20,000 nt of DNA, taken from NCBI GenBank assembly GCA_008632985.1, contig QPGO01000054.1, positions 238,261 through 258,260 of the forward strand, read 5' to 3'. Position 1 is the stretch's first letter. Each line of letters begins with the position of its first letter. Under the pieces are notes generated by a model that did no database searches, was not told the origin of the DNA, and saw nothing but the letters and a program-made list of their open reading frames with translations. Shown here one piece after another: positions 1-20,000 of the stretch. This DNA comes from Psammoneis japonica. Taxonomy: Eukaryota. A program made the position numbers and the translations under genes.

Positions 1-1693
1 TCTCACACTGACAAGAGGGAAAAAAGGAGTTGTTGACACCTGAGAGGTGCAGGCAGAGAGCAGTCAACAGTTTGGCAAGTCAACTGCCCAAAATGACGTT
101 CAAGGCATGCAGAGCTTGCACTGAAATTTGTGTTGAAATGCACACAAATAGAAGAAAGGCCAAATCACACCAAGTTGGTGGGGTGTCTCAAATTCAAACT
201 TCTGGGAGCAGCAACAATGGAAGATTCTTTGCCACACAAAGCAGAGAACTTGAACTGACATTTGGCAGAAGGGGGGTCATTGATGCTGGAGAGTTGTGAG
301 TGGAGTGCAGTCAACAGTTGGGCAAGTTGACCATCTAAGATTGCTCTCAGAGAATGCACGCAGAATTTGTGCTGAATCTTGTGCAGAAACTTTTGCAGAT
401 TTTGGAGAAAATCACAAAGAAAAATGACAAGCAACCAAGCCAAAAGAGCTTGAGGCTAATTGCTTTCTAACACTTTCCAACAATGCTCTGGATTGCCCAT
501 GATGATGAAACAAAGGCACATCCACAGAAGAAGCAGTTGGAAAGAGCAGGTGAGAGCCATCATTGCACCATCAGAGAAAGGCAACATCAGTGCGCCAGAA
601 ATCATGAAAAAAAAACATGGGATGTGTGGCAGAGAGATGATGGCAGAATTGTGACAAGACAAAAAATGGATGGACAAGAGCAGCAGCACCTGGCTGGAGA
701 TCATCTGGAACACTGGCCAAGGTGAGCCTTTGCTCTGGATTGTTGTGGTTTCATTTTGAGATGCAGCACCACACTGTTGGGCTGCACATGCACCCACCTC
801 TGGTTAAAAAAAAAAGATTGCCCCACAGTTGTGTTCATGTGTGAGCAACAACATGCGAGTTTTGTAAAAAGGGATCCCCCCCCTCCTGGTGTGTGCACCC
901 CTGCTGGGTCTGCTGTGTGCCCAATTCACACAACACCACACACACACCAATGTGTCTGCACAGCAGGGGGTCTCACATGTCTCACACATCTGGGGGAGAC
1001 AACTGTTCTGTCACAGAGTTGCCGCCCTGCTGTTTGATGCAAAGGCAAGCTGCAGTCATGACACTCACAAATGCAACACAAAATCAGCGAGATGGTGGTG
1101 GCAGCAGTGCAAAAAAAAATCAGAGGGTGGGGCAGCTTGGTGGTGTGTGCAGAGCAGGTCTCCCAACAAAACAGCATGCAGCCAGTGTTTGCAGGAGACT
1201 TGTTTGTGCAGCAGTTGTGAGAGCCCTGCAAAAGTCATCAAGAACACTGCTTGTCAGTGTGTCCAAATGTGGCATGACATGGTCAACAGTGCACTGAGAA
1301 ACCCAACATGACCATCCAATGAACCACTGTCCAATTGTTGTGTGACAAGCCTCTCATTCTGATTGACAATGCAGTTGTTGATTCACAAACAATCAAGTCC
1401 CACAGTGGGAGATGCTGTTTTTTGTTGTTCGTTGAGCACTGCATTGGATGCAACTTCAAACCACAACATCATGTGGTGTGAAATCATGCACCAGCTTCCT
1501 GTGTGGTTGTGATGTGTGTTTCTGTTTGGCAGTGAAGCCAACACACAAGAACCAAGTGTGGATCCAAGCTTGCACCTCAAGCAACCAGGAGGAGGTGGCC
1601 CAAACCAAACAAAGCAACCCGGAGGCAAGGATTCTCAATTTGCCAAAATCAAGTGATTTTGCCAAATCCAGCTGGCCATCCACCCTGGAGGAC

Positions 1694-3101
1694 TCTGGGC
1701 GGTGGTGGACACAGTTGGAGCATGCTGGACGGCAGGTGCATTTGGACAGAGTGCTGGATGGCAGGCACAGTTGGAGAACCCCAAATGGTGGGCACAGTTG
1801 GAGGATGCTGGACTTTGGGTGCCCAGTTGGAGAGAGTGCTGGGCTGCTGTTGGAGAATGCTGGATGGTGAGTGCAGCTTGAGAATGCTGGATGATGATGG
1901 GCAAAGTTGGAGGATTCTGTCTGCAGGGTGCTTGATGCTGGATGGTGGGTGCAGTTGGAGAGGATGATGGACAGCAGGTGCATTTGAAGGATGCTGGATG
2001 GCAGATGCAGCTGGAGGGTGCTGGGCACACTGAATGGTGGATGCAGCTGGAGGGCTCTGGGTGGCAGGCCCAGTTTGAGGACAAATGATTGCCATTTCAT
2101 CCATTGAGTTTTCAACATTGTTTTTTTTTTTGCTGAATGACCACTTGCATTTGCCAGTGGAAGCACATGCTCCCAACTTTCTTGATTCTCTGCGCTTGAG
2201 CNNNNNNNNNNNNNNNNNNNNNNNNNNTGCATCAATGCTGTTCTCTGATTTGTTCAAGGTCTGCCATGAAAAGCTCAAGCACAAATGTGATTGCAGGTTG
2301 CTTCTGCACACAAGTCAAGAGCTTGTGTGGTTGTTGATTGCCCAATCATGATGGGGAGGCCATGGATTTGTCTCAGGAGAAGGTGGGCCTGTGATCTCAC
2401 CGCAAATGGGCAAGCATGGATGGTCATCCAAATTCGGGAGAAAGCACCGACTAGAGTCATGCATCTGGTCTCAACCATGCACCATCTTGAACTTGTGCTT
2501 TAACGAATTCTGCCATGACAGGCGCAGTTGGGCAAAACTGAGCAAATGAAGTTGGAGCTGAGGCAAGTCAAAGCCGCTGGCACTCTTCTCTGGTCTGGGC
2601 GGTGGTGGACACAGTTGGAGCATGCTGGACGGCAGGTGCATTTGGACAGAGTGCTGGATGGCAGGCACAGTTGGAGAACCCCAAATGGTGGGCACAGTTG
2701 GAGGATGCTGGACTTTGGGTGCCCAGTTGGAGAGAGTGCTGGGCTGCTGTTGGAGAATGCTGGATGGTGAGTGCAGCTTGAGAATGCTGGATGATGATGG
2801 GCAAAGTTGGAGGATTCTGTCTGCAGGGTGCTTGATGCTGGATGGTGGGTGCAGTTGGAGAGGATGATGGACAGCAGGTGCATTTGAAGGATGCTGGATG
2901 GCAGATGCAGCTGGAGGGTGCTGGGCACACTGAATGGTGGATGCAGCTGGAGGGCTCTGGGTGGCAGGCCCAGTTTGAGGACAAATGATTGCCATTTCAT
3001 CCATTGAGTTTTCAACATTGTTTTTTTTTTTGCTGAATGACCACTTGCATTTGCCAGTGGAAGCACATGCTCCCAACTTTCTTGATTCTCTGCGCTTGAG
3101 C
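1694..3101 (+). repeat. Identical 508-bp direct duplication (1694-2201 = 2594-3101), each copy ending at an N gap
   Basis: Line-by-line identity at an offset of 900. A second, diverged duplicate pair lies at 2377-about 2592 and 3274-3503. Confidence 0.9.
1700..2080. repeat. Degenerate minisatellite, unit about 27-33 bp (consensus like CAGTTGGAGGATGCTGGATGGCAGGTG), second copy at 2600-2980
   Basis: CAGTTGGAG/CAGCTGGAG and ATGCTGGATG recur about every 30 bp. The minus strand reads as repeated PxSSxLQLx. Confidence 0.8.
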
Positions 3102-3503
3102 NNNNNNNNNNNNNNNNNNNNNNNNNNNNNNNNNNNNNNNNNNNNNNNNNNNNNNNNNNNNNNNNNNNNNNNNNNNNNNNNNNNNNNNNNNNNNNNNNNN
3201 NNNNNNNNNNNNNNNNNNNNNNNNNNNNNNNNNNNNNNNNNNNNNNNNNNNNNNNNNNNNNNNNNNNNNNNNNGAGAAGGTGGGCCTGTGATCTCACCGC
3301 AAATGGGCAAGCATGGATGGTCATCCAAATTCGGGAGAAAGCACCGACTAGAATCATGCATCTGGTCTCAACCATGCACCATCTTGAACTTGTGCTTTGA
3401 CGAATTCTGCCATGACAGGCGCAGTTGGGCACAATTGAGCAAATGAAGTTATGAAGTTGGAGCTGAGGCAAGTCAAAGTCAAAGCCGCAGGCACTCTTCT
3501 CTG

Positions 3504-3526: not shown

Positions 3527-3669
3527 CGACCCGCCACATTCGAATACGATGGAAATACTGGCGCTTTGCTTTGGCTATAACATTACCTAGATGCTTAAGG
3601 GCTGAGTTTAGATTACGAAGTGCGCAAAAGCAGAATATACATCGGCTTAGGGATAACAGCAATGGGATC

Positions 3670-5247
3670 TCAACGAGAGCACGACCCTCCCGCTGTGTTT
3701 CTTCTCACTCGAGTTGGCGGAGATGTAGTGGCCTCGTGATAAGAAGATGTGGTGCGCATGCCCGGGAATACGCCAGAAGCCGTGGGCCGCACCAAAGCTC
3801 TTCCGCCCGTAATTCTCGACCCGTCAAATGTCTTGTACATGTTGACGACATTATCAGAAATTCCGTCTTCAGCGGTTGCCACAGCCACCACATCGCCGCA
3901 ACGAGAAAAGACCGTGACAGCCTTCTGAGTAAGCCTAAAGCTCCGTGAACTCGTCCTTCGCCGATCCAGATTTACAATGTTGACATAAAAGACGCCATTG
4001 CTCTGAGAGTTCGCGAGAAAGGTCCGTCCATCCGCTGAGAAACCCCATCCAGCACTGCCCCGGATATTTGAGAGATAAAACACTCGACGGTTCTCTTCGA
4101 GATCCCACACAACCACTGTTGTGGGGGAGACAAGCGAAGCTTGGGTAACCATGACAAAATATCGTCTATCCGGCCCGAACCCATACTTTCGTGTTCCTCG
4201 GGATAGAGTATGTCGGTAAATGCTTCGGCCATCGGACTGGCGAATAACGGCGAGGCGCGATCCTGTCACCTCAACACGGTATTGGTCGCCACCGCTGGTA
4301 ACTGGAGCAGTCGGCGGCCTCATAGGCCCAGTTTTGGAGCACTCACAATCCACGCCAGGTTTTGGAGCGTTCACGTCGTATTCCTCTCCCTCTGTTTCTT
4401 CTGGTGGAGAACCAGTACCGCCACTTCCTGGAAGACCAGCAATAGGAGCACCGCCTAATTGTGAAGACAAAGCGTTGTTACGGGATTCTGTGTGCGCTCT
4501 TGTTGTGCTCTCGAATTCATCCGAATCCAGAGACATGCACCAATTATAGTGCTCAAGATGGCTAACACTCCAATCGTGTCCACAATTTCTTCGCCGATTC
4601 GCGTACCCTTGTCGAACAGCAGTTTCAGCATAGGCATCGCAAACGCATCTCTGCAATGCTTGTTGTCGATATTTTTCGCCGTCTTGAGTTAGAAGAACAT
4701 GGCTTCCAAAGAGGCACCACGAGGAATGGTATGCAAATCTTGAGTCCCACTCTGGGCCTTGATATCCACATTCGTACTGGAGGTTCTTGTTATTTTGTGT
4801 CACGGCTTTGCGACTATAACCCTGGCATGCTTGTTCTTGAAAGGCACACAGTAAGAAATCGCTGTTTCGGCGGAGCTCTCCCTGTTGCATGGCGGCAAGA
4901 TTCTTGACTTGCATGCACCAGTCATAGTGTGTTGCCTTTTGCAAGCTCCACACGGGGCCTCCCAAATTTGATCCACACGGCAGGGCTTTCATTCGTCTCG
5001 ATACATCCACTGCCGAATTGGCGTAGTTTTCACAAGGCCTCACCCAGAGCTGGTCTTGGTTTGCATATGGGTTTTTATTGCAGTTGTCAGTCACGCACGG
5101 CAGCTGCAACAGGCGTCGGGATTGCTCCTTCGGTTTCGTATCAGCCGAATGCAACCTCTTCCTACTGATGCGAAGCTGGAAAACAAGGCACACCGCACAT
5201 AGCACGGCGACAACACGAAACATATCTTTTGAGAAGGATCGATTCAT
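3670..5247 (-). CDS. Secreted or signal-anchored protein with three Cys-rich repeats (CxxYxxxAVx...CG...W...HxxWC), a Gly/Pro/Glu linker and a C-terminal beta-rich (propeller-like) domain
   Basis: Long ORF, likely ATG at 5247 (MNRSFSKDMFRVVAVLCAVCLVFQLR, hydrophobic stretch). Repeats CENYANSAV..HYDWC, CQGYSRKAV..HSSWC and CDAYAETAV..HYNWC. YGFGPDRRYF, WGFSADGRTFL and VFSRCGDVVAV resemble propeller blades. Confidence 0.75.
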   Translation of the reverse strand: MNRSFSKDMFRVVAVLCAVCLVFQLRISRKRLHSADTKPKEQSRRLLQLPCVTDNCNKNPYANQDQLWVRPCENYANSAVDVSRRMKALPCGSNLGGPVWSLQKATHYDWCMQVKNLAAMQQGELRRNSDFLLCAFQEQACQGYSRKAVTQNNKNLQYECGYQGPEWDSRFAYHSSWCLFGSHVLLTQDGEKYRQQALQRCVCDAYAETAVRQGYANRRRNCGHDWSVSHLEHYNWCMSLDSDEFESTTRAHTESRNNALSSQLGGAPIAGLPGSGGTGSPPEETEGEEYDVNAPKPGVDCECSKTGPMRPPTAPVTSGGDQYRVEVTGSRLAVIRQSDGRSIYRHTLSRGTRKYGFGPDRRYFVMVTQASLVSPTTVVVWDLEENRRVFYLSNIRGSAGWGFSADGRTFLANSQSNGVFYVNIVNLDRRRTSSRSFRLTQKAVTVFSRCGDVVAVATAEDGISDNVVNMYKTFDGSRITGGRALVRPTASGVFPGMRTTSSYHEATTSPPTRVRRNTAGGSCSR

Positions 5248-5822
5248 GATTGCAGTTCTCGGACGAAGGCAAAAACGCTGAAGCGACAAGTATATACACG
5301 GAAAAGATTGTGCCTTCTGGTAGAGTGAATGTAGACTCTCGGTGATTATCCGCCTTAGCATTCAGTCGTGAGTCATGCTGCTTGTAAAAAAGGACCATTA
5401 CTTTGCAGCAATGCCACGAGTGAAAGAAACGGCGGGAACTACTCTCTCTAGCTAGAGAGCTAGTAGAGATTAGAGAGAGAGTAGAGTGTACCGTACCGCA
5501 CGGACGGCAGCACTTGATAGTCGGTGCCACGACTCAAAGAAAACGCGGTTGCGGGTCCGCGTTAGAATTTCTGTTTCGAACTGCGTGAATTCACAAAAGT
5601 CTCGGTTGGCGTCGCAACCATCGCATTTGGTCAAGAAGAAGCTCTACCCATAGGCCTGTGCTCTGCCGGTAGCTAGAGAGGGTATGCCATAAAGGCTCTC
5701 TCTACTAGAGCAGCAGACAGAGGAGGACAATGGCAGGCAAGGATGTGTCCCAAGGCTTTCTAAACAGTGGCAACGGGGTGGCGCTGCATGCAAATCTGTC
5801 TTAAAAGAAGTCGTCGCCTTTC

Positions 5823-8049
5823 CTAGCCTCTTGGTGGTGGCATGCCTTCAACAGTATTCCACGGTAGCAGGCTTCTCCACAGAACTTCGAGCATTGGTAG
5901 ATCGGGATCAATGACGTTTGTAGGTGGACCGCCAATTTGCAAGAGATTACCTCCAAATCGTGCCCCGGCTTGCTGTTCAAGTAGCTGTTCCCTCCGATTG
6001 TTCCAATCCTGCCGGAGAAATCTAAAGAATCAGTGTTGAAAACAAATGGATAAGACGCTCTTGCGTAGAAAGGGGGAGCGCAGAAACGCCGGGACCGACA
6101 GACGTACCTGTCGTTGGGAAGAACTTACCTGCGTCGATTCGGATCAATAGCTAGAGCTGGCCCAACCAAGTTTGGATCTAGCGGATTTGCATCTGGCGGA
6201 AGCGTCCTAAAACGGTCCTTGTAGTCGTCCGGGTCCACTTTTTTGTATCTGCAAAACGCGGTCTTGATCGAACCTGTTACTGGTGCTCCTAGATTGCAGC
6301 AGTTCTCATAGAGCCACAACAGAACCTTGTTGCTCGACCAAAGCTTGTGGTTTCGATCTACAAAGATTTGAATCATCAAGTCGCACGTGGTGCTGGCACT
6401 ACGGCAGAGGGTGGGGTCCAATTCTTCCTCTTGCGCTGTTGACATTCTGTTACGCAAGTCAACCAACACGGAGGGCCAGTCGGTCTGAAAGGATCGACCT
6501 GTCTTGTCTACTTCATTCTTGTCCAAGAGCATTTCCACAACTTTGGGGAACTTCTGTATCGCTGAGACAAGGGCTTCGCTGGCACGGTCCAATGACACTA
6601 CGTCTGGATCAGAAAGGTGCAAGCGGTGAAGCGCAAGCGCATACGAGTAGGACCAATTCGGCAGGTCTAGCAATTCGCATTGATATTGCTTTTCTGATGC
6701 TGGTTCACGGTAGTGAATTTGAATCTTTGACATTTATGAATATAGAGACAAACAGTAACTTTCGTTAGCAAATTCAGCCACGTGACATCACCCCGCACCC
6801 CACCCCTTCGCTACAATAACTTACCCGTTGACTCTCCACAAGGTCCACAACAAATTGATCGTGAGAGCTGGTCAAAGTGGCAAGTCCATAGTAGTCGAGA
6901 AGCAGCAGGACACCCATTGGGTCGCAAAGTGGATTGAGGGACAAGAGATATCGGGAAACTGCAAGACATGTTCGAATGCAACTTTGTGTGAAGACGTGAG
7001 AAATAAACAACATTAGTTCGTGCAATATATGAAACTTACCCGGCGACACCACTAACTTGAATCAGTCGAAACAATGCATGAAAGTATGACGCATTCTCCT
7101 TCAAATCGTAGTCCATAAAAAAGCTTTTCTTTGAGTCAAGTGGTGTAAAACCAGCCAAGGTTGAACATTCATACACCCACAGACATCGTTTCAGTACGGA
7201 GAGGCCCTCCTGACTCTGGCTCGTTTGGTACAAAACCATGCAGAGTTGAAGGAGTGCTTCCACCACAAAAGGGTGATGTGCTACATAAAGAGCTAAAGCA
7301 TTGACATCGCCGGTTTGTTGGATGCGCTCATAATCTGAAAAGTCTCGTTGATATGTATCTGAGCGAATAAAGGTAAACCATCGCGACAAGTCGACTTCGT
7401 CTTGACCGACGGTTCCTTCCATTGTATACGGCCACGGCAAGGTACGTGGTTCATCCTGATAACTCGTCATGCCCAAGCCTCCACCGATATAATGAGGGGG
7501 GCGCTGTTGTGCCCACTCGTCTCGGGGGGGTCCAAACAATAGTCTCGTTGCACGTCGTTGTGAACGGGATGGTGCACTGTCTTCTGTATCGTTTCCAAGC
7601 AGAGAGGTGCGCATGACATAGTCAATATCTAGATCTCTTGCATCCATACCATTTACAATCACTGCAAACCAAGACGGAATCGAAGGGTCATCCATGGGCG
7701 TAGCTGATGTATTTTTCTTGTCGTGTGTCGCAAACTCAGCAAGAAGGGCATCTAAGTCTTCTTGTTCCTGTGGTTCCTGTTCTTCTTTCGCTAAGGAATC
7801 AGATATTTTCTTCGGTTCTACTTCTGACTCCTGTATCAATTTTTCTGAAGAATCTTCTCCCTCCTCTTCACCGCCATCACCATCACTGACGTCCTCCTCT
7901 GACGAAGACTCTTCGTCTACCATGGCGAGAAAAGCAGCACGTTTTTGCCCCGTCACATTTTCTTCTTCCTCTTCTTCACTCTCGGACTCGAGTTGTCGCT
8001 CAGCAGCTTCTCGCTCCTCCCTCAAACGTCGAATAGCTCTTGAACTCAT
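5823..8049 (-). CDS. TCF25: TCF25/Rqc1 family ribosome quality-control protein; exons 7040-8049, 6825-6981, 6129-6724, 5823-6021
   Basis: N-terminus MSSRAIRRL followed by an acidic tract; HPFVVEALLQL; GCIRTCLAVSRYLLSLNPLCDPMGVLLLLDYYGL; C-terminal LWRSLLPWN. Three GTAAGT donors and AG acceptors join all exons in frame, ending at TAG 5823-5825. Confidence 0.9.
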
Positions 8050-8614
8050 CTTTACGATACTATCGTTTCTTGTTTCAATCAACAACAGCAATGTTCAATG
8101 TGAACGCGGTCCATCGCAGGTCCATCGTCCATCGTCCATTCATCCGGCCGGTGGACGGTGCGCGGCAGCGCGGATGCGCGACTCTGAAGAAATCGTAATG
8201 TTATATTGACTGTATCTATTGCCTTTATATTGCCCGTTAGTACATAACGCTTTACAATATTTAACGTCGTGTACTAAGACATAAAAAGCAACATTATAAG
8301 AAGGTCTTATAATCCATAAGTACGTTTAATCTTGTTTGCATCATTGTTAAATAAATTCTCCTTAAACGGGTTTGTCTTGAAGAATATATTTCTTTTAAAT
8401 AATTACATAATATCAATGTCACTCCATAAGAATGACAATTAGTCCGAATAGATTTTATGTTAAACGACAGTTTCTATCCAAGATCGATGGACTTTAAGTA
8501 CAAAGAAGGGGGGGATCACAAATCCTCGCTTCTCTCGCTTGCATTCATTTGAAAAGTTCATCACAGCGACTTCGCTCTTTGCTCTCATTCTGATTTTTGA
8601 AAAGAGGAGAAGCA

Positions 8615-10939: not shown

Positions 10940-11180
10940 TTCTATCACGCATCATCTAGACTATGCCTCTGCTGCCTTCCTTTGCAAGAGCGGCGTTGGC
11001 TTCACCGCTCATACTCTGCAACTTCGTCTTTGTTCGTGCCTCCTTTCCCTCTCCCTCTAAAGCATCATCTGAGCCTCAGCTGACGTAACCCTACGGCGTC
11101 GGCTTCACCACTCATCCTTTCCACGTTCCTCCTTGTTCATGGTTCTTTATCTTCCTCTAAAGCATCATCTGGGCCTTCGT
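10940..11180 (-). repeat. Degenerate tandem repeat of about 100-105 bp (2.5-3 units) spanning the GPCR stop codon
   Basis: TCTAAAGCATCATCTG at about 11156 and about 11056; GCATCATCTAG at about 10949; CGGCGT(T/C)GGCTTCACC at about 10991 and about 11094. Confidence 0.75.
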
Positions 11181-12567
11181 TTGCTTCGACTGTAGTCGTG
11201 GTGTTGGCTTCTCTCTCCTCCTCTCCACCTTCATCCGTGTTTGCGCCTTCTGTGTCGTCAGTGGACGAATAGTTGCCATCCTCGTCCGGCCAAATGCTGT
11301 CTGCAAGTGAATTATAAAATTCATCAGACGAGAGGCTATCGCCGTTGCTCATTTCTCCCCGAGGAAGCGAGCCACTCTGTTCCTCGCCGTCACCATTCAT
11401 TACTTCCGACTCGGACTGTGGCGGTTTCGACCGTGACCGCCTGAGAGACGACAGGATGCCCCTGGAGCCTGAATTGGAAGCAAAGTTGTACATCCAACCT
11501 GATGACTCACTGTCACTTGGTTCTCCATCCCCATCCCTTGAACCGCAAGCCTGACAAGTCACAAATCGTTTGACTGCAAAATACAAATCTGGCTTGAGCA
11601 AGGAGAGTGCAGCCGATGTGGCTCCTTGCAAATGTGAGAGTGTCCCACCGACAAAGTGAACCCAACTGGGCATCCATGTCGCCAACATAAACAGTACAAT
11701 CATGTACGGCACCCACATGAGAATAAACACAGCTACAATGCGACCAAAGTATACAACTAACAAGCGGCGTTTGCCCGCCGGTGGTATCAAGCCATGTTTC
11801 CAGACAATGAAGCAAATGTACGTAATGTACAAAATCGGAATACCTCCAAACGCTGGGAAAAAGAAGAGCCAAAAGAAAATAGAAGATCTCCAATCTTGTT
11901 CAACCGGCAGAAAAGCTAAGCCACTTGTCGAAGCGACATAGTGAGGAAACTTGTTGCTCTCGATCAGCCCCAATGCTCCCAAAAATATTGTAAAGACGTA
12001 AATCGCAAGCGCTTGTTTTGTCACGAAACGTATCTTTGGAACTCTGTATCTGCATATTCTATCCGACCCTCTAAGCATTTTGTAGAGCTGCTGTGTAACT
12101 GCTGCGTTAAGCCACATGTTTGATCCAACGCCCCACACGATAAACATCATTTGAAAGTTGCACATGGACGCCACTTGGCTCTTGTTGATCGCATGAATCA
12201 TACAAACAATACCGCAAAGGATCGAATAGACTGCATCAGGAAACATAAGGTACAATAGGTAGACATTGAAGGCCCGCGTTCGTGTACACCGTGATGACAA
12301 GACTCCCAAAAAGATGATGAGGGTGAAGAGTCCAAAAAAGAGTGAAATTACGGCCCAGGCAGTCCAGTACTTCGTGAGAGCACCATCAGAGGGAGCCGCT
12401 AGCAAGTAGTCATAGCGAGTTGAATTCTTGTTCAGTTCCCAAGTCCTCAACTCTGCCGAGCCCTTATTGTCCGTCCGTGCCATTGTCTCTTGTGTGTCGT
12501 TTCTCTCGGTCTCGGCCTGGGTCACTTCTCGGTTGGATGGGAGGAAAAAACGGCGGGAAGGACATTC
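11137..12567 (-). pseudogene. 7-transmembrane GPCR-like gene, separated from its N-terminal codons (17415-17472) by the transposon; possibly a pseudogene
   Basis: Seven hydrophobic segments, FNVYLLYLMFPD after TM1, CNFQ, FILMWVPY in TM6, HLQG..SA...L.KPD in TM7, and an acidic Ser-rich tail. The reading frame is open up to the left TSD. An internal ATG (MARTD) could still be used. Confidence 0.7.
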
Positions 12568-12709
12568 TCATCTGCGAACGGACTGAAAATCTCTACCGTG
12601 TACTGACCGTCGTACGAAGATTTGTCAATCTCCAAATTTCCAAAAAACACAAAAATCATGACCTCGCCCATGGCGTATCAAACTTGGAAGCCTACCACTC
12701 TGTAACTAT
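12568..12709 (+). repeat. Left terminal inverted repeat (64 bp perfect + divergent spacer + 42-bp block)
   Basis: TCATCTGCGAACGGACTGAAAATCTCTACCGTGTACTGACCGTCGTACGAAGATTTGTCAATCT is the reverse complement of 17351-17414. Confidence 0.95.
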
Positions 12710-12803
12710 TAAGAACTGTCTCACAGTACGTTGCTGAGTCGTTATTGATACTACTAAGAATATACTGGTAGCTTCATTTTTGGATTTACGACCAAGTATT
12801 GTC

Positions 12804-14078
12804 ATGAGTAGAGCCATCAAAGTGACAGATGATTTGCAGGTCGAATTTTCGGTCCGACACTCAACTTCTCTCCAATCGAAGTTGTTGAAGCTCGATTTGA
12901 ACGATACCAAGTCGTTGTCGAAGGTTTATCCCGATATATCAAAGTTGGGGGCTACTGTGGCGCTTCCAAAGACAGTCATTGGATGCTCCAGCGACTTCAG
13001 AATCGTGGATCGGAAAATTATTGACTACATCACGCTCGGCAAACAGCATCGAGATTTCGAGAGGGAAAAACTCAAGAATGCACAGCGTTGGGAGAGAGAC
13101 GAATATAGGAAAAATGTAACGAGTTTGATGGAGCAAAAAGAACTTCTCCGAGCGAAAATGACTTCATTGAGCAATGCAGATACAGGCACGGTTACACGCA
13201 CGGATGCACGCTCGTCAATGCCTGAACGAGTGCACCATGCATGGTCTGTCACACCGCCACCCACCAATTCCAGTCGCCCATTGAGTAATAGAGCTCAACA
13301 AGATGCCACAGTTACAGAAGACTCAGTGGCAGCAGCCTCATCTACCGTTGACGAGGAAAGTGACGAGCCACAAATCGCAAAGTTTGTGCGTGATCTCAAC
13401 GAGGCTTTTTTTTTAGACGACGATCCCAGTCTGATCCAACTGCGCAGCCCACGTCCCTCTCGAGCTCACACAATGAATGAGAATGTCAGTCTTTTTTCCA
13501 GTGAGGAAAAGCAACGAGAGCTTGTTGGCAGTGAGGAAGAAGAGCAGCGGAAAAAGAAGCACAAAACTGGAACCAACTCACAGACAATTTGTCAACAAGT
13601 TGACAAAACATCGATGGGAGTGATGCATTCTTCGCTCAAGAGAGTGGCGAAGTGTGTTGGTGCAGTCCAGCATCCTGACCTGGTGGATCGACAACCCAGT
13701 GTCCATGTTGCATGTCTCGTGTTTAGCGAGTTGTGCCAAATGACTGCCGACGGCGGCCAACCCACGTGTGATCGCTCTCGAAAGCCATTTTCATGCATGC
13801 CAGCATCATCAAAGGAGGGAGCAAAGAAGTGCATGAGGGCGTGCGCCAATGCATTTCATTCTTCTGATCAAGAAGAGAGAGAAAAGCATGTTCTTGCTGC
13901 TCCGTTTGCAGGTGGCAAGCTGAAGGATCCCGTTCGAATCTCAGCACGGAAATTGCAAACTGCATTGGAAAGAACTGTTCCAAGTGCCAAGCGCCGAAAG
14001 CAAAGCCTCGCGCGTGCAGTGAGGTCCAGGCGGACGATGCATCGGACGAAGACTCATCAGACAAGGAGAGTTGATTGA
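12804..14078 (+). CDS. Transposon accessory ORF of unknown function (coiled-coil-like segment, low-complexity linker); 3' half hypermutated
   Basis: ATG at 12804 just inside the left TIR; about 424 open codons. Tyr occurs only in the N-terminal part. A possible late frameshift would give the alternative end DDASDEDSSDKES*. Confidence 0.6.
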   Translation: MSRAIKVTDDLQVEFSVRHSTSLQSKLLKLDLNDTKSLSKVYPDISKLGATVALPKTVIGCSSDFRIVDRKIIDYITLGKQHRDFEREKLKNAQRWERDEYRKNVTSLMEQKELLRAKMTSLSNADTGTVTRTDARSSMPERVHHAWSVTPPPTNSSRPLSNRAQQDATVTEDSVAAASSTVDEESDEPQIAKFVRDLNEAFFLDDDPSLIQLRSPRPSRAHTMNENVSLFSSEEKQRELVGSEEEEQRKKKHKTGTNSQTICQQVDKTSMGVMHSSLKRVAKCVGAVQHPDLVDRQPSVHVACLVFSELCQMTADGGQPTCDRSRKPFSCMPASSKEGAKKCMRACANAFHSSDQEEREKHVLAAPFAGGKLKDPVRISARKLQTALERTVPSAKRRKQSLARAVRSRRTMHRTKTHQTRRVD

Positions 14079-14123
14079 CCTTGACCAGTTGTGGCGAGCT
14101 TCATGAAACACACTCTGGGCAAT

Positions 14124-17100
14124 TTACGTGTGCCATTTTCTAGAAATGTGAGGCATGCCATTGCCAAAGCACCACGCTAAAAATTGTCGAGACCGCTGGC
14201 TCAGTCCCTGAGGAGAAAATGCGACAAGCCCCGCACAACATCCCTCGGATGTTTGTGTCAGCCTGACATTGTCGGCAAGGTCCACACCTTCAGATGAGCT
14301 GAACTGGATTGTCTTTTCACTGAAGTCCTTCCTTGCTGCAGTGCTCTTGAATGTGTGCAGATCATGCTTCAGCTCTTCTTGCAGACTGGGGAGAAACCCT
14401 TGGCTGCGGTTGCTTGCCCAGCTCTCTCGACTGGTCTCGATTGCAGCCACACGGTTGTGACTCCAGTTGGGATCCAGCTCCATGAGCTTCTTTCTAGCCT
14501 TGACAACAACACCAATCAAAAAGGTCTTGTTCTGCATGGCCACCTTCTTTTTGGTGCCATCTCCTGCAACTTTCCAAACTCTCTTCGATTTCTTGATGCT
14601 CTCACAGAACTCTTCGTCAATTTTCCCTTCCTTGTGGCACTCGTTGAGCTCCCCCTTGAGCTTTCCAATTTCTCCCACCGCATCCGCTGCCAAACAGACC
14701 CCCTTCTCCAACAGACAATTTTCATCAACAGACACAGAATGCTTCTTGTCAAGATCAAACTGAGCACTTTCCGCATTCTTCAGTGGATCTAGCACCAAAA
14801 GGTCAATGCCATCCTTTCCCTTGGGGAGCCACTTTCTCAATGAGTTTCTTTCTCGCCGGTGAGGCGCACCACCAGTCCGTGAAAAAATCAGCAATTGGCG
14901 ATGCGCATCCCGTGTGATGAGAAAGCACAACACACAAGGCCACAAGCTTCAAGGCCGACAGAAATGTTGCAATGGAGGCAGTTGCTTCAGCTGATTGTAG
15001 CAGCTGCATCACATGATAGAGACGGAGCCACGCCAGAATCAAAGTGGTCATTGGATGCTCTGCCGCTCGCTCAAGCATGTGGTCAATGACATCCACGGCA
15101 CTTGTCTCAATGGCTGCACCATCTTCGGTTGCCCTGCGTTTCTTCTCGACACACTTTCGTGTTGCAGAGAGGCAAATGGCATTCACCATTGCACTGGTCT
15201 CTCGTAGGACGGTCCCTGGATCACCAGGATTCAAGACCCAGTTTAGCTGGGCTTCTGATGTTCGCCACAACGACAAGATGTCAATCAAAAATGCGCCACC
15301 AAAAAGCTGCCCGACAGCTTTCCAGCAAGTCAGCATTGCATGGAAGCCCCCAAGAACAATTGTCAACCCCATGAGTTGGAATGATTCCTTTAAATGGCGC
15401 AGTTTGAACAAATTTGTGCACGGGTCACCGTCCCCACCAAACGCGACCGGAAAATCTTCATGAAGGGGTGCTGTGCCCTTCGACTCTTGCGCCTCTGCCC
15501 AATCAGAATCAAGCACTCGTTCGGAATTCTTGAGTGTTGCATTTTGCTTCTCCTCGCCCATGTCTGTGATGCTGTTGAGTGTGCTGTCCTTGCCAAAATC
15601 GGTGTCAAGTGGTGGCTGCATGGTTGCTTTGTTGATTGAAAGGAAAGTTGAGGTTTCTCCGGGAGCAGAGTTTTCACTTTCGTCGTCAACATCCCCGGCA
15701 TCCTGCCAATCAACTGTCATGGACGTCTCATCAAAGTAAAGTTTTGAATCAAAGTTTTCAATGACTGCCCGTGACATGACTTCATTCCAATGTGGAACGC
15801 CTGGCCAATCAAATTCCGCAGCATGCAACATGACGTGCGCGTCGTGCTCCCTTGGCCATTGTTGCTCTGATTCGCACTCCATCACGGACCAGATCGCCCC
15901 CAGCTGCATCGTTGCCAGGAGTTCCTTGTCAGATTGACAAATTCCTTTTATTCCATCACAGCCAGCAAAATCCTCGTGTTGCCGTTCCTCTTCCAAATCA
16001 TGCTCGGGCTCCCGGCTCAGCACCTCTCGGTCCGGGTTGCTTGGGTCGCAATGCAGTCCGTCTGCAGTGGCTTGCTCGTTGTCGCACAGCAGAGTCACTC
16101 ATTGCACAGTTTGAATGCATCTAACTTTGTTCTTTTTCCCACCTCAAACTTTGTGCCCACAGTTGTCTTGCTGGTCGGTGAGATGGTCGCACTTTGACGA
16201 TTTGGTAAAATCAAATCCTTCCAGAATCCTCTGGTCTGCGAGTTTCTTGTTCCCTCGCCTCACTGTTTGTTTTGTCGTCGCCAGACCGAAACCAGTGAGA
16301 AGAGATGAAACATTGTCAGGCACCGCTTGGGCAGCCAAATGTGAACCGAGCAGGGATTGAATGATGCCACTCGAATTCGAGCTGCTTGCACTCCGCACCA
16401 TGTCCGTCACCACAAACACGGTCTTGAAAAGTCGATTCCATCGCCGACTGCCCTCCAATGCCTCTCCCTTTTCTTCCTCCATTTCTTTTCTTGTTCTTCC
16501 ACACAAGAGACAGAACATAAAGTCATGTGGAAAACTGTCGTTGGACTTTGCAAGCTCTGCAAGCGCTCGCTCGGTGGGGTGCGCAGTCGGGTCGCATCGC
16601 CGCGCAGCAGCAGAGTCGTTGGCAATCATGATGGAATGAAGACGCTTCACCAACCTAAAGAAGTTCCTTTGATTTCCGTCACCCATTTCAGAAGGACTGT
16701 CTTTTGAGAAAATGACACTCTGTAGATCCAGTTTTCCATCTTCTTTCCATCCAACCAAAGAAAGCCCGACAAAATTTGTTTGGTCCTTGAGATTCGTCTG
16801 AAAGTGTCAGACCATGTCCTTTCTCTTACTTGGTTCGGCCATTTCATGATCAGATGTCTTTGATCTCGTCTTTACAACACCATCTTGCCGAGAGCAAGTC
16901 AGAGAACGGCACAGATGCTTGGAGCAAAGGGTGCTGCACTTGGGACAGGTAATTTGGTTGTGTCGTCCAAGACCGGTGCATGCTCCCGCAAAACATTCAA
17001 CACACAGTCGATGATTTTTCCTGCAGAGAATCGTAAAATATACGCTACCTCTCTCGGGTGTCCATCCATTGCACTTACAGCATTCAAAACCGGGTGTTTC

Positions 17101-17196
17101 CGTTGCCGTAGGCTCATCATGCCGACGACGCTTCACATTAGAGGATTTGTGTGATGATCTCAAAGATTGATGTTTTTGCCTTTCACGGCCACTCAT
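14124..17196 (-). pseudogene. Disrupted Academ/DUF6589-like DDE transposase with an N-terminal RING-type zinc finger
   Basis: ORFs 16807-17223, 16144-16758 and 14803-16098 share one frame, broken only by TGA at 16807, 16144 and 16099. RING-like CxxC..CxxxH..CxxC..CPxC; QDN motif; GGDGDP...LTIVLGGFHAMLTCWKAVGQLFGG. Frameshift or deletion near 14825 into the 14124-14945 frame. Confidence 0.75.
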
Positions 17197-17271
17197 TTCA
17201 AACCAGAAAAATTCAATAAGCACTATAGAGAGTGTTCCACGATACTACCAAGTTTCGAGTATCAGATCGTT

Positions 17272-17414
17272 ATAGTTACAGAGTGGTAGGCTTCCAAGTT
17301 TGACACGCCATGGTGGTGCGTCGTTTTTTGGTGTCAAAGTTGAATGTGGCAGATTGACAAATCTTCGTACGACGGTCAGTACACGGTAGAGATTTTCAGT
17401 CCGTTCGCAGATGA
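17272..17414 (-). repeat. Right terminal inverted repeat
   Basis: Reverse complement of 12568-12709, with the same two conserved blocks. Confidence 0.95.
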
Positions 17415-17472
17415 ATTCTGGTGTGCATAGCCCTACTTCCATCGTAAACATGATGTTGTGTAGCTTAGACAT
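17415..17472 (-). CDS. Orphaned N-terminal codons of the GPCR-like gene (MSKLHNIMFTMEVGLCTPE)
   Basis: Removing the element and one TSD joins this ATG-initiated frame in phase with the 11137-12567 ORF. Confidence 0.65.
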
Positions 17473-17662: not shown

Positions 17663-19189
17663 ATGAACTTTGATTATGGGTTCACATACCTGCGTTCCAC
17701 AAATCAACTCATGCGTGTGATACGATACGTTCTCTTTACAATGCCAGTACTCTTTCCTCACGAACCGTCCTCAGTAGCGTACGGTCTGGGATCAGGGACC
17801 AAACCACCACAACGACTCGTTTTGGTCGGAGGTGGGCATGGGCATGTCCAGGTTATCAAGGCTTTCAATCGCAAGAGTCGACCAGCAAGATTGCAAGTCA
17901 CGCTAATTGATGTACAGAAATCTGCGTCCTACAGTGGAATGGTACCTGGTTGCGTCTCCAAAATGTACACACCTGACGAAACATTGCTTCATCTAGAGCC
18001 TTTGGCGGAATGGGCTGACATTGATTTCATCAACGACAAGGTAATTGATATGGATCTGGAACGCAAGACGCTTCGACTCGAACACACTCTTGAGCCTGTT
18101 CCTTTCGATGTAGTAAGCTTAGACATTGGGTCCGCATCAAGAGGATTGTACGAGACACCAGGTGCAAAACAATTCACGATTCCCACACGACCAATATCAG
18201 ACCTGATTCGCAGAATAGAAGAGGCTGAAGCGCAGCTTGTTAAACAGAAACCATCAGAAGTACGCGTGGTGGTCATTGGAGGTGGTGCAGCGGGAATTGA
18301 GCTATCGCTAAGTATGAAAGGACGATGGAATGACATTATTCCAGGAAAGGTTGACGTGACGCTATTGGATAGCGGAAGCGAATTGCTTCCTAATGAGTCT
18401 CTCGCTTGTCGCGAGAAACTCAAAGAAGTCATGGATGACAAGAACATTGATGTGCGACACCATTGCTATGTGGACCAAATCTGCAAGGACTCGGTTCTTC
18501 TTACGTCGGGAGAACGAATTCAATACACGCATTGCTTATGGGCAACCGGAGCTGGGGCTCATTCTGTCGCGCATCAACTGGGGAAGCGAGGACTCTCAAT
18601 TGATAAGAGAGGATGGATTCGAGTGAACGAGAATTTACAGAGCTTCTCACATCCTTTTGTATTTGCTGCTGGTGATTGCGCTTCAATTGAGGTTCCAGCC
18701 AAACAAGGACCTCCACCCAAGGCGGGTGTCTACGCGGTACGTGCTGGGCCGGTGTTGATTGACAACCTGACAAACTATCTTGAACGGCAGCCACTGGTCC
18801 CGTACAAGCCTCAAGACGACTTTCTAAAACTCATGGTCGTTGGCGACGGCACTGTCCTGGGATTTCGGTTTGGGATCCCAATTCACGGGAAATGGGTATG
18901 GCAGATGAAAGACGCAATCGACCAGCATTTCATGTCTTTGTTCAAACGAGAAAACCTGCCCAACCTAGAGGATGGAGCGCACCTTGTTTCTTCGCAGTAT
19001 GACGCTGAATTTTTCAAGCAACAGGCAGATCCTCTAGATCCTGATGAAGCTGCTCTCTTGTTGCAAAGATCGGATGATGACGTAGACTTCCAGGTCGCCT
19101 GGAAGGTCTTGCGTGACATGACCCAGGACGAAACGTACAGAAACAGGGTGCTGCAAAGACTGGAGGTACCAATGTTAGTTGAAACATGA
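17663..19189 (+). CDS. FAD-dependent pyridine nucleotide-disulfide oxidoreductase of the type found N-terminal to selenide water dikinase (SelD), here stand-alone
   Basis: LVLVGGGHGH, YSGMVPG, FDVVSLDIGS, VIGGGAAGIEL, VFAAGDCA, PKAGVYAVRAGP and WQMKDAIDQHFM. No SelD kinase domain follows. The true start may be ATG 17711 or 17741. Confidence 0.85.
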   Translation: MNFDYGFTYLRSTNQLMRVIRYVLFTMPVLFPHEPSSVAYGLGSGTKPPQRLVLVGGGHGHVQVIKAFNRKSRPARLQVTLIDVQKSASYSGMVPGCVSKMYTPDETLLHLEPLAEWADIDFINDKVIDMDLERKTLRLEHTLEPVPFDVVSLDIGSASRGLYETPGAKQFTIPTRPISDLIRRIEEAEAQLVKQKPSEVRVVVIGGGAAGIELSLSMKGRWNDIIPGKVDVTLLDSGSELLPNESLACREKLKEVMDDKNIDVRHHCYVDQICKDSVLLTSGERIQYTHCLWATGAGAHSVAHQLGKRGLSIDKRGWIRVNENLQSFSHPFVFAAGDCASIEVPAKQGPPPKAGVYAVRAGPVLIDNLTNYLERQPLVPYKPQDDFLKLMVVGDGTVLGFRFGIPIHGKWVWQMKDAIDQHFMSLFKRENLPNLEDGAHLVSSQYDAEFFKQQADPLDPDEAALLLQRSDDDVDFQVAWKVLRDMTQDETYRNRVLQRLEVPMLVET

Positions 19190-19263: not shown

Positions 19264-19785
19264 TTAACTGGGTGCTTTTCGTGTTTGCTTCGATTGGTTC
19301 TCAAAAAGTCGTGCTATCTGCTCAGACGATGTGGCTTGTTCGATGTTCTTATCAGGTCTTCGGCGTATGAATCTAGGGAAGCGAAGGGCTACGCCTCTTG
19401 ATGGGTCTGCATTGATCATCCCTGCAGCAGCTTTATGAGCTCGAGATAAACTAAGATCAGCAAACGCCACTTCGAATACTTCCATTGGTTTGAACCAAAT
19501 CGGTGGAGACTCGTTTGTATCAATTAATGCGGGTCGTCGCTCCGAATAGCAGTTCACTCCTTCGACGTGGCCATCCACTTTTTTCGAATCGCCCCCATCG
19601 TCAGAATCAGCCGGATCACCATCTTCCACAACAGCACCTGATGTGGCATCCACCCCATCTTCCTGATCAAGTCCAACTCCATCAGGATACGGAATACCTT
19701 TCATGTAGAAGTCGCGCATAGCTTCGTACATTGCATCTGAAAAGCTCATGCACCTGCTGATCGAACGGAACACTTCGTCGTGATT
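19264..19785 (-). CDS. 3' part of an ATP-dependent DNA ligase I-like gene (OB-fold domain); 5' part not recognisable in the window
   Basis: VFRSISRCMSFSD, PPIWFKPMEVFEVAFADLSLS, GVALRFPRFIRRRPDKNIEQATSSEQI; stop TAA at 19264-19266. Confidence 0.85.
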   Translation of the reverse strand, partial: NHDEVFRSISRCMSFSDAMYEAMRDFYMKGIPYPDGVGLDQEDGVDATSGAVVEDGDPADSDDGGDSKKVDGHVEGVNCYSERRPALIDTNESPPIWFKPMEVFEVAFADLSLSRAHKAAAGMINADPSRGVALRFPRFIRRRPDKNIEQATSSEQIARLFENQSKQTRKAPS

Positions 19786-20000
19786 GGCTGTGATGGGTGG
19801 GACATGACAAGCAAGAAAAGTTAGAAGAAGCAACACAAAATGACAAAGTGAACAACAGGGACAAGATTGTTTTGGTGAACTGCTGCAAGAACTCTTTGTT
19901 CAGACAGCTCAAGTTTCTGAACAAAAAGGCCATCAACAACAGCAACGGCAGGGTTGAAAAGATTGTGCGCCATCCAAAATCAGTGTGCCCCAAGAAAAGA
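19786..20000. repeat. TpA/CpG-depleted segment, probably the edge of another degenerate repeat or TE
   Basis: One TpA and about two CpG in about 215 bp; ligase similarity is lost here. Confidence 0.5.

Follow-up and report, generated by a model that had tools for sequence, protein, structure and literature searches.

In mutation-accumulation lines of the chlorarachniophyte Bigelowiella natans, 231 of the 302 nuclear single-nucleotide mutations fell in an integrated giant virus and virophage, and 230 of these 231 were A-to-G or T-to-C changes, stated to lie all on TpA (Mettrop et al., bioRxiv 10.64898/2026.01.13.699255). According to the main text of the same preprint, hypermutation occurred in 11 of 15 lines and raised the mutation rate about 1000-fold, and the B. 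natans genome contains 324 TpA-depleted coding sequences that are enriched in DDE and reverse-transcriptase domains, as well as 124 clusters of windows in which TpA is low and CpA + TpG is high. An ADAT2-like DNA adenine deaminase is proposed there by the authors as a hypothesis. Here, we describe a 4847 nt mobile element with terminal inverted repeats and a broken transposase-like gene, the interior of which is almost devoid of TpA and probably bears the footprint of a similar process. The element is located at 12568–17414 of a 20,000 nt stretch of DNA from Psammoneis japonica (assembly GCA_008632985.1, contig QPGO01000054.1), which is referred to as the window and which provides the coordinates used throughout.

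Fungal repeat-induced point mutation (RIP) changes C to T, mainly at CpA, and thereby creates TpA and lowers the G+C content. Deamination of 5-methylcytosine (5mC) at CpG cannot remove TpA. ADAR favours U before the edited A and also edits ApA, and APOBEC gives C-to-T changes. For Phaeodactylum, a mutation-accumulation study reports a GC-to-AT bias together with context effects; the accessible text of this study makes no mention of TpA hypermutation and cites cytosine methylation in Phaeodactylum (PMC6604790). Our literature search returned no report of TpA erasure besides the B. natans preprint, and none for diatoms. The initial annotation of the window, which was made from the sequence alone, knew of no described system with this signature, but the preprint reports one.

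TpA content of the element and its surroundings

The TpA-erased interior spans 13415–17033 and contains 21 TpA, compared with 143 expected from the frequencies in the flanking genes (Poisson P(≤21) = 3e-37). A dinucleotide count over 13420–16980 also yields 21, with an observed/expected ratio of 0.09, in agreement with the approximately 20 TpA that had initially been counted in about 3.5 kb of the transposon core. This ratio is 0.49 in the left flank and 0.50 in the right flank, and ranges from 0.46 to 0.94 per 500 nt window in the flanking genes. On the left, a TpA is encountered every ∼24 nt up to 13414 and the next one is found at 13724. Towards the right edge, the TpA at 16873 and 16950 are the last of the sparse ones, and the dinucleotide is dense again from 17034. 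Outside both edges there is one TpA per ∼20–25 nt. The loss is thus confined to the interior of the element, while the neighbouring host genes are spared.

Relative to the flanks, TpA in the interior is reduced to 0.15, while ApA (0.95), ApT (0.84), ApG (1.04) and ApC (0.82) remain close to or not far below their flank frequencies. ApA and ApT had been described before as unaffected, and these counts bear this out. Since ApA is not depleted, mutagenesis at WA sites of the Pol-eta type, which had been considered in the initial annotation, does not fit, and ADAR-like editing is argued against for the same reason. CpG had been noted to remain common. This is correct, but the dinucleotide is not untouched: its observed/expected ratio of 0.68 corresponds to 0.81 of the flank frequency and represents a mild loss. 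When balanced against flank frequencies, the interior has a deficit of 122 TpA and 37 CpG and an excess of 124 TG and CA combined, which roughly offsets the two deficits. The gains of TG (55) and CA (71) show no significant strand bias. The G+C content is 0.50 in the interior and 0.45 and 0.44 in the two ends of the element.

The boundaries of the whole element were obtained from its inverted-repeat arms and an end alignment. The left terminal inverted repeat (64 nt, 12568–12631, plus strand) is a perfect match to the right one (64 nt, 17351–17414, minus strand) and retains TpA at 12594, 12601 and 12613. The end alignment further contains a second conserved subterminal block at the element ends. 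A candidate 4 nt target-site duplication, ATTC, can be read at 12564–12567 and 17415–17418, but is weak as four letters may match by chance. With its inverted ends and this weak candidate duplication, the element presents features of a DNA transposon. By comparison with flank frequencies, TpA and CpG are normal in the left part of the element (12632–13414; 1.05 and 1.04, respectively, over 12570–13414) and also in the right part (17034–17350; 1.33 and 1.03 over 17034–17414), which carries the first ∼54 codons of a minus-strand gene.

From run X1, 201 contigs were placed on the window, 120 of which are less than 95% alike. Their summed depth over the element is 4–7 times that over the flanks, which is a rough guide and not a copy number, and several contig joints resemble internally deleted derivatives of the element. 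These observations point to the existence of the element as diverged copies. The number of contigs over the element ends is at least equal to that over the interior. The ends are therefore repeated yet unmutated, which would not be expected of a process that simply recognizes repeats or the element as a whole. The initial description of the hypermutation as repeat-targeted is consequently not borne out, as 12568–13414 and 17034–17414 lie under many diverged contigs while their TpA and CpG are normal. Run X2 gives almost no cover over 13969–16172 and is present on the element ends; nothing is inferred from the missing cover.

An artefact, with TA systematically misread as TG or CA at modified bases or altered by faulty assembly, is barely credible. 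N gaps and a collapsed-looking tandem repeat (1694–3450) are indeed present in the window, and the sequencing platform is not on record. Nevertheless, the X1 contigs, which are possibly the assembly's own data, differ little from the interior where they overlie it (one of 453 letters, on 16365–16817, has eight differences). Moreover, we know of no error mode that alters every TA on both strands over 3.6 kb and stops sharply inside a gene, with the genes on either side being read normally.

The transposase-like gene and the direction of change

The minus-strand gene of the element (14124–17196) belongs to a transposase-like family of ∼1000–1100 residues and is broken. Against a profile of 33 long homologues, four pieces fall in sequential order on positions 4–110, 124–333, 354–755 and 929–1072; no residues from the window are aligned to positions 756–928. 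In-frame TGA stops are found at 16807–16809, 16144–16146 and 16099–16101, a frame change occurs within 14803–14948 and the end codon is a TAA at 14124–14126. An exhaustive HMMER search of a 1.84-billion-protein library with the 431-residue piece retrieved 195 proteins at E ≤ 0.001, of which 85 are at E ≤ 1e-10, and many of the relatives are 900–1130 residues long. A word-indexed homologue search with the same piece among proteins of 237–755 residues was blank.

Judging from conserved residues and the predicted fold, the gene product is likely to be a transposase. Asp167, Asp223 and Glu300 are invariant in a 25-sequence alignment of the family. The predicted model of the 431-residue piece (pLDDT 76.5) is that of a folded piece without the N-terminal part of the core, and it finds its best fold match in the P-element transposase of Drosophila (6p5a_A; Z = 5.9, r.m.s.d. 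4.8, 212 residues aligned). The match to the hAT transposase Hermes has Z = 3.8 and an r.m.s.d. of 7.7 for 198 aligned residues. The product thus shows a weak resemblance to P-element and hAT transposases in its invariant D, D and E residues and in its best fold matches, which may reflect an RNase-H-like fold with an acidic triad, but differs from them in that the Z values are below 8, where a score can reflect a common arrangement, and in that no sequence relative is found among solved structures, where the search gave a single row with E = 0.2. Foldseek returned nothing at E ≤ 0.001 for the model of the piece. In Pfam, five of the 25 family members match DUF6589 below its cut-off (best 21.3 bits, E = 1.3e-4, compared with a gathering cut-off of 27 bits) and the window's own piece does not match this entry; the window pieces hit no Pfam family even at E ≤ 10 and none of the members scanned brings a Pfam family to its threshold. 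The name transposase given to this region in the initial annotation is therefore likely to be correct given the P-element as best fold match and the invariant D/D/E, while the Z of 5.9 and the blank Foldseek and Pfam searches fall short of proof.

The three minus-strand pieces within 14124–16806 contain two tyrosines in 925 residues, in line with the very low content noticed initially. The probability of this is 1e-10 at the family median of 3.1%, as calculated from the best 150 homologues, only one of which lies below 0.5%. In 22 related metagenome loci, found using a six-sequence alignment of the family, the homologous coding part has a TpA observed/expected ratio of 0.42–0.73, and none of 314 one-kilobase windows falls below 0.3. 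Homologues that are equally poor in tyrosine and TpA would have spoken for inheritance, but the homologues and related loci are normal in both respects, which shows that the depletion is not a family trait.

The protein reveals the direction of the change, since a single TA-to-TG or TA-to-CA step turns TAY into TGY or CAY, respectively. Seven profile columns carry a tyrosine in 50% or more of the 33 long homologues. The window retains none of them and has His (twice), Cys (twice), Met, Leu and Phe instead, while it keeps 93 of the 148 other consensus columns (Fisher p = 0.0013); the median tyrosine retention of the homologues is 0.71. When the stops are read as X and the nine columns with a tyrosine fraction of at least 0.4 in the erased part are considered, the window reads TGC at four of them, CAT at two, Phe at two, Met at one and Tyr at none. 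A near-invariant tyrosine column (94 of 100 matches) is Cys in the window. Some of the His- and Cys-rich words that had been picked out as former TAY codons are in agreement with this (VRCIQT falls on the family motif GYxQxT and GLHC on GIY), so that this suggestion is partly confirmed. Among 113 codons that differ from the consensus, eight are restored to it by a TA: six Tyr, one Leu (CTA) and one Val (GTA). The Leu column (87% Leu) reads CCA, which fits an ancestral CTA, and the Val column reads GCA, which fits GTA.

The depletion extends over all three codon phases. Per 1000 codons, the window has 3.1, 9.4 and 7.3 TpA in the three phases, compared with 30.9, 50.9 and 64.3 in nine related loci, corresponding to a five- to tenfold drop. 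The 709 nt beyond the gene stop (13415–14123) contain one TpA. As all codon phases and the noncoding tail are depleted, codon usage is not the cause. The initial annotation reached the same conclusion from the observation that open reading frames (ORFs) on both strands are affected. This observation is true but uninformative, because TA is its own reverse complement and the absence of TAA and TAG opens every frame. Since the polarity, codon-phase and bookkeeping tests agree, we read the sequence as one in which TpA has been turned into TpG and CpA by transitions in the DNA, with codon usage and a family trait excluded. The same three lines of evidence support the earlier proposals that the loss is mutational and that the responsible process is confined to mobile DNA.

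Selection against TpA through codon usage, RNA stability or avoidance of an enzyme that cuts or inserts at TA is a very improbable source of this pattern. A general pressure does exist, given that TpA is under-represented throughout the genome (∼0.5 in the flanking genes). However, coding phases and noncoding sequence are depleted alike, conserved tyrosines have been given up in a gene with three in-frame stops and a frame change, and the functional ends keep their TpA.

An interior that was imported from, or evolved in, a TpA-poor genome or virus would have inherited its composition. The sharp compositional edges within the element and the higher G+C content of the interior relative to the ends are in favour of such an origin, which we nevertheless judge improbable. 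The gene is continuous across the right edge: profile positions 4–110 span 17034, and this edge lies inside the conserved N-terminal zinc-finger region, so that it is not a junction of unrelated modules. In addition, the replacement of conserved tyrosines by their one-step products Cys and His in a broken gene is indicative of decay and not of adaptation. None of the 22 related loci is TpA-poor, and the same loss is seen in a different sequence elsewhere in the window (1–3450).

Recurrence, context and age of the changes, and other features of the window

This second erased block, which the initial annotation had overlooked, spans 1–3450 and extends past the left end of the window. It contains nine TpA compared with 129 expected and 25 CpG compared with 174 expected, corresponding to 0.07 and 0.14 of the flank frequencies, while TG and CA are increased 1.4–1.8-fold. 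The deficits of 120 TpA and 149 CpG (269 combined) are set against a gain of 279 in TG and CA. The block includes a 900 nt tandem duplication (1694–2593 and 2594–3450) and N gaps at 2202–2227 and 3102–3273. No Pfam family was found in ten of its 23 listed ORFs, which were the ones scanned. The loss of CpG in this block and the milder loss in the interior of the element probably result from 5mC deamination.

The final 178 nt of the window (19823–20000) lack TpA and have two CpG. They are too short to judge but could be the start of a third TpA-free stretch, perhaps the border of a third edited repeat. The last depth bin (19479–20000) has a summed contig depth of ∼226, compared with 57–61 in the preceding bins, and loose contig ends are present at 19855 and 19891. 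Among the family homologues, the 338-residue protein P0179 has no tyrosine, with Cys and His at the two Tyr-consensus columns that it covers. It may represent another TpA-erased copy in another assembly.

The TpA that survive are not a random sample with respect to the neighbouring bases. In the interior, the 21 survivors comprise no RTAY, nine YTAR, eight RTAR and four YTAY, where the flanks have 157, 76, 116 and 102, respectively (Fisher p = 6e-5 for RTAY versus YTAR in interior survivors versus flanks). In the block at 1–3450, all nine survivors are TAR and seven of the nine are YTAR. This hints at a preference that is wider than the dinucleotide itself. The gains of TG lie almost entirely in NTGY (about +49 versus +6), while those of CA amount to about +23 in RCAN and +48 in YCAN. 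A model in which the A of TAY is changed, whichever strand it is on, would account for the survivors and for the increase in TG, but not for that in CA, and was set aside.

In all, 663 differences between the window and other copies were found, and 17 of the 40 that are listed lie in the interior. Only one of these 17 (16576) restores a TA in the other copies, so that a large part of the editing may have happened before these copies spread. Five of the listed interior differences are CA/TG doublets, the pattern that results from independent hits on one ancestral TA or CG. At the doublet 16018/9 the homologue column is Leu in six of six sequences, which fits an ancestral CTA. At 14935/6 Leu is common (31) and the six most frequent residues do not include Ser, in keeping with an ancestral TTA. 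It is therefore likely that some hits came after the copies had separated.

The same chemistry could also have acted without a dedicated defence. A one-off or local mutator state, for example through an accident of repair or replication or a bias that depends on chromatin, might have hit the interior of one ancestral copy, which later spread in trans or became joined to unedited ends. The spared ends with their perfect 64 nt inverted repeats agree with such a history, as do the near absence of restored TA in the listed differences and the symmetry of the transitions between the window copy and the others. We still consider it unlikely, since the process recurs: the same erasure is found 10 kb away in the block at 1–3450, and possibly a third time at 19823 and in the tyrosine-free P0179. 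Furthermore, the CA/TG doublets suggest hits after the copies separated, and in B. natans, as far as the preprint text describes it, the process keeps to foreign DNA and recurs across 11 of the 15 lines.

We consider it probable that the interior belongs to a DNA transposon, now dead, of a diatom-like genome and that it carries the long-term footprint of TpA-specific hypermutation as in B. natans. Some 85% of the interior TpA has become TpG or CpA through A:T-to-G:C transitions in the DNA. The simplest chemistry would be that adenine at 5′-TA-3′ in silenced mobile DNA, whichever strand it is on, is deaminated to inosine, which is then copied as G. Alternatively, a T modified so as to pair with G would leave the same footprint. 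Hydroxymethyluracil of the dinoflagellate type, as a possible origin of T-to-C changes, was considered and dropped. A second, ordinary process of methylated-CpG deamination would have acted weakly on the interior and strongly on the block at 1–3450. Editing may have proceeded as a tract that did not reach the ends, which hence escaped, and the present copies would be either non-autonomous ones, still mobile by means of a transposase provided in trans, or products of recombination between an edited interior and unedited ends.

A number of observations weigh against this interpretation. The gain of TG and CA in the interior (124) covers the loss of TpA and is smaller than that of TpA and CpG combined (159), and the consensus-restoring codons that fit an ancestral CG (seven) are about as numerous as those that fit TA (eight). 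TpA and CpG are normal at the element ends, on which many diverged contigs lie as well. The transitions between window and copies are symmetric (A>G and T>C, 242; C>T and G>A, 222), so that the window copy is no more edited than its sisters and a single old burst before the copies spread is an equally good account of these numbers. Of the remaining doublets, 16311/2 leans towards CG and two are uninformative. Finally, the evidence comes from one genome window and the contigs of one sample, and consists of a footprint; run X1 may be the source of the assembly itself and is thus not independent support for the bases.

The erasure of TAA and TAG opens long ORFs on both strands. In simulated sequence of the same dinucleotide content the longest ORFs measure 196 ± 41 aa. 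TpA-erased DNA therefore yields long false ORFs (431 aa here compared with ∼196 aa by chance), and gene finders will over-call genes in such regions. Long plus-strand ORFs are observed in the interior, for example at 14298–14792 and 15020–15463. A further plus-strand ORF of 424 aa (12804–14078) starts in the TpA-normal left part of the element and extends into the erased interior, where its tail may be open only through the loss of TAA and TAG. It has no Pfam family, no homologue among proteins of 233–742 residues and no match in the 22 related loci.

The neighbours of the element are a weak 7tm_1 match (11137–12483) and a Pyr_redox_2 gene (17663–19189), both assigned using Pfam. The named homologues of the latter gene are all from diatoms, with 49–59% identity, and its best matches reach 63%, which marks the host as diatom-like and distinct from B. 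natans. To the left of the element, an X2 contig joins 6021 to 6129 cleanly, skipping 107 nt, and has 157 other letters between 6724 and 7040. X2 may be a transcript assembly, in which case 6022–6128 may be an intron of a gene spanning ∼3593–8108. A 563-residue minus-strand ORF (3670–5361) has no Pfam family and contains repeated (H/Y)x(W)C(M/L) motifs such as HYDWCM, HYNWCM and SSWCL. In two related metagenome loci, inverted repeats of 20–24 nt with 85–88% complementarity surround the homologous gene ∼4.4–4.5 kb apart (2836–2859 and 7201–7224 in L007; 1771–1790 and 6271–6290 in L003), a spacing that resembles the size of the element in the window. These candidate repeats were dropped as they are too weak.

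Comparison with known systems

Like RIP, the process seen here is a transition hypermutation that is limited to mobile or repeated DNA, has sharp edges and destroys reading frames. The outcome is different: TpA is lost, CpA is gained and the G+C content is raised in the interior relative to the ends (0.50 versus 0.44–0.45). The mutated tract also does not coincide with the repeated tract, the ends being unmutated, with the contig depth serving as a rough guide. Deamination of 5mC at CpG has its products TpG and CpA in common with the changes in the element. ADAR and APOBEC are comparable in that deaminases drive clustered transitions in parasitic sequences, but ApA is unchanged here, in contrast to ADAR, and APOBEC acts in the C-to-T direction. 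Moreover, the inverted ends of the element and the failure to find a reverse transcriptase make it unlikely that the changes reached the genome by way of RNA.

If the favoured interpretation of the interior is correct, TpA erasure is not peculiar to one alga, hits ordinary transposons as well as integrated viruses and can proceed almost to completion. TpA editing of mobile elements may then be more widespread than is known. It is possible, and proposed here only tentatively, that a TpA-directed DNA adenine-editing defence is common to diatoms and chlorarachniophytes and perhaps to much of SAR. Such a defence would work tract-wise on silenced mobile DNA, prefer RTAY over YTAR and operate in parallel with, but separately from, CpG methylation, and transposons would outlive it as non-autonomous copies if their ends escape. 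The context of the survivors, with YTAR kept and RTAY gone, and the spared ends place new constraints on the mechanism. Diatoms have genetic tools, so that the responsible enzyme could be sought by knock-out.

The closest known case remains that of B. natans. As described in the preprint, the mutations there were watched as they happened, while here they are known from their footprint alone. The hosts differ, being diatom-like (a stramenopile) in our case and a chlorarachniophyte in the other, and the target here, a short DNA transposon, has inverted ends that are spared and carries superimposed CpG decay. The depletion of TpA is stronger in the element (0.09 compared with 0.45 in the giant-virus region), and its survivors are biased to YTAR, whereas the main text of the preprint gives no wider context. 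In both cases, according to the same text, only TpA is converted to TpG and CpA, mobile or foreign DNA within an otherwise normal nuclear genome is affected and low TpA is accompanied by high CpA + TpG. The TpA-depleted coding sequences of B. natans are likewise enriched in DDE transposase and reverse-transcriptase domains. The lineage described here is thus the second with a footprint of TpA erasure, and the element is the first transposon with such a footprint to be examined in detail.

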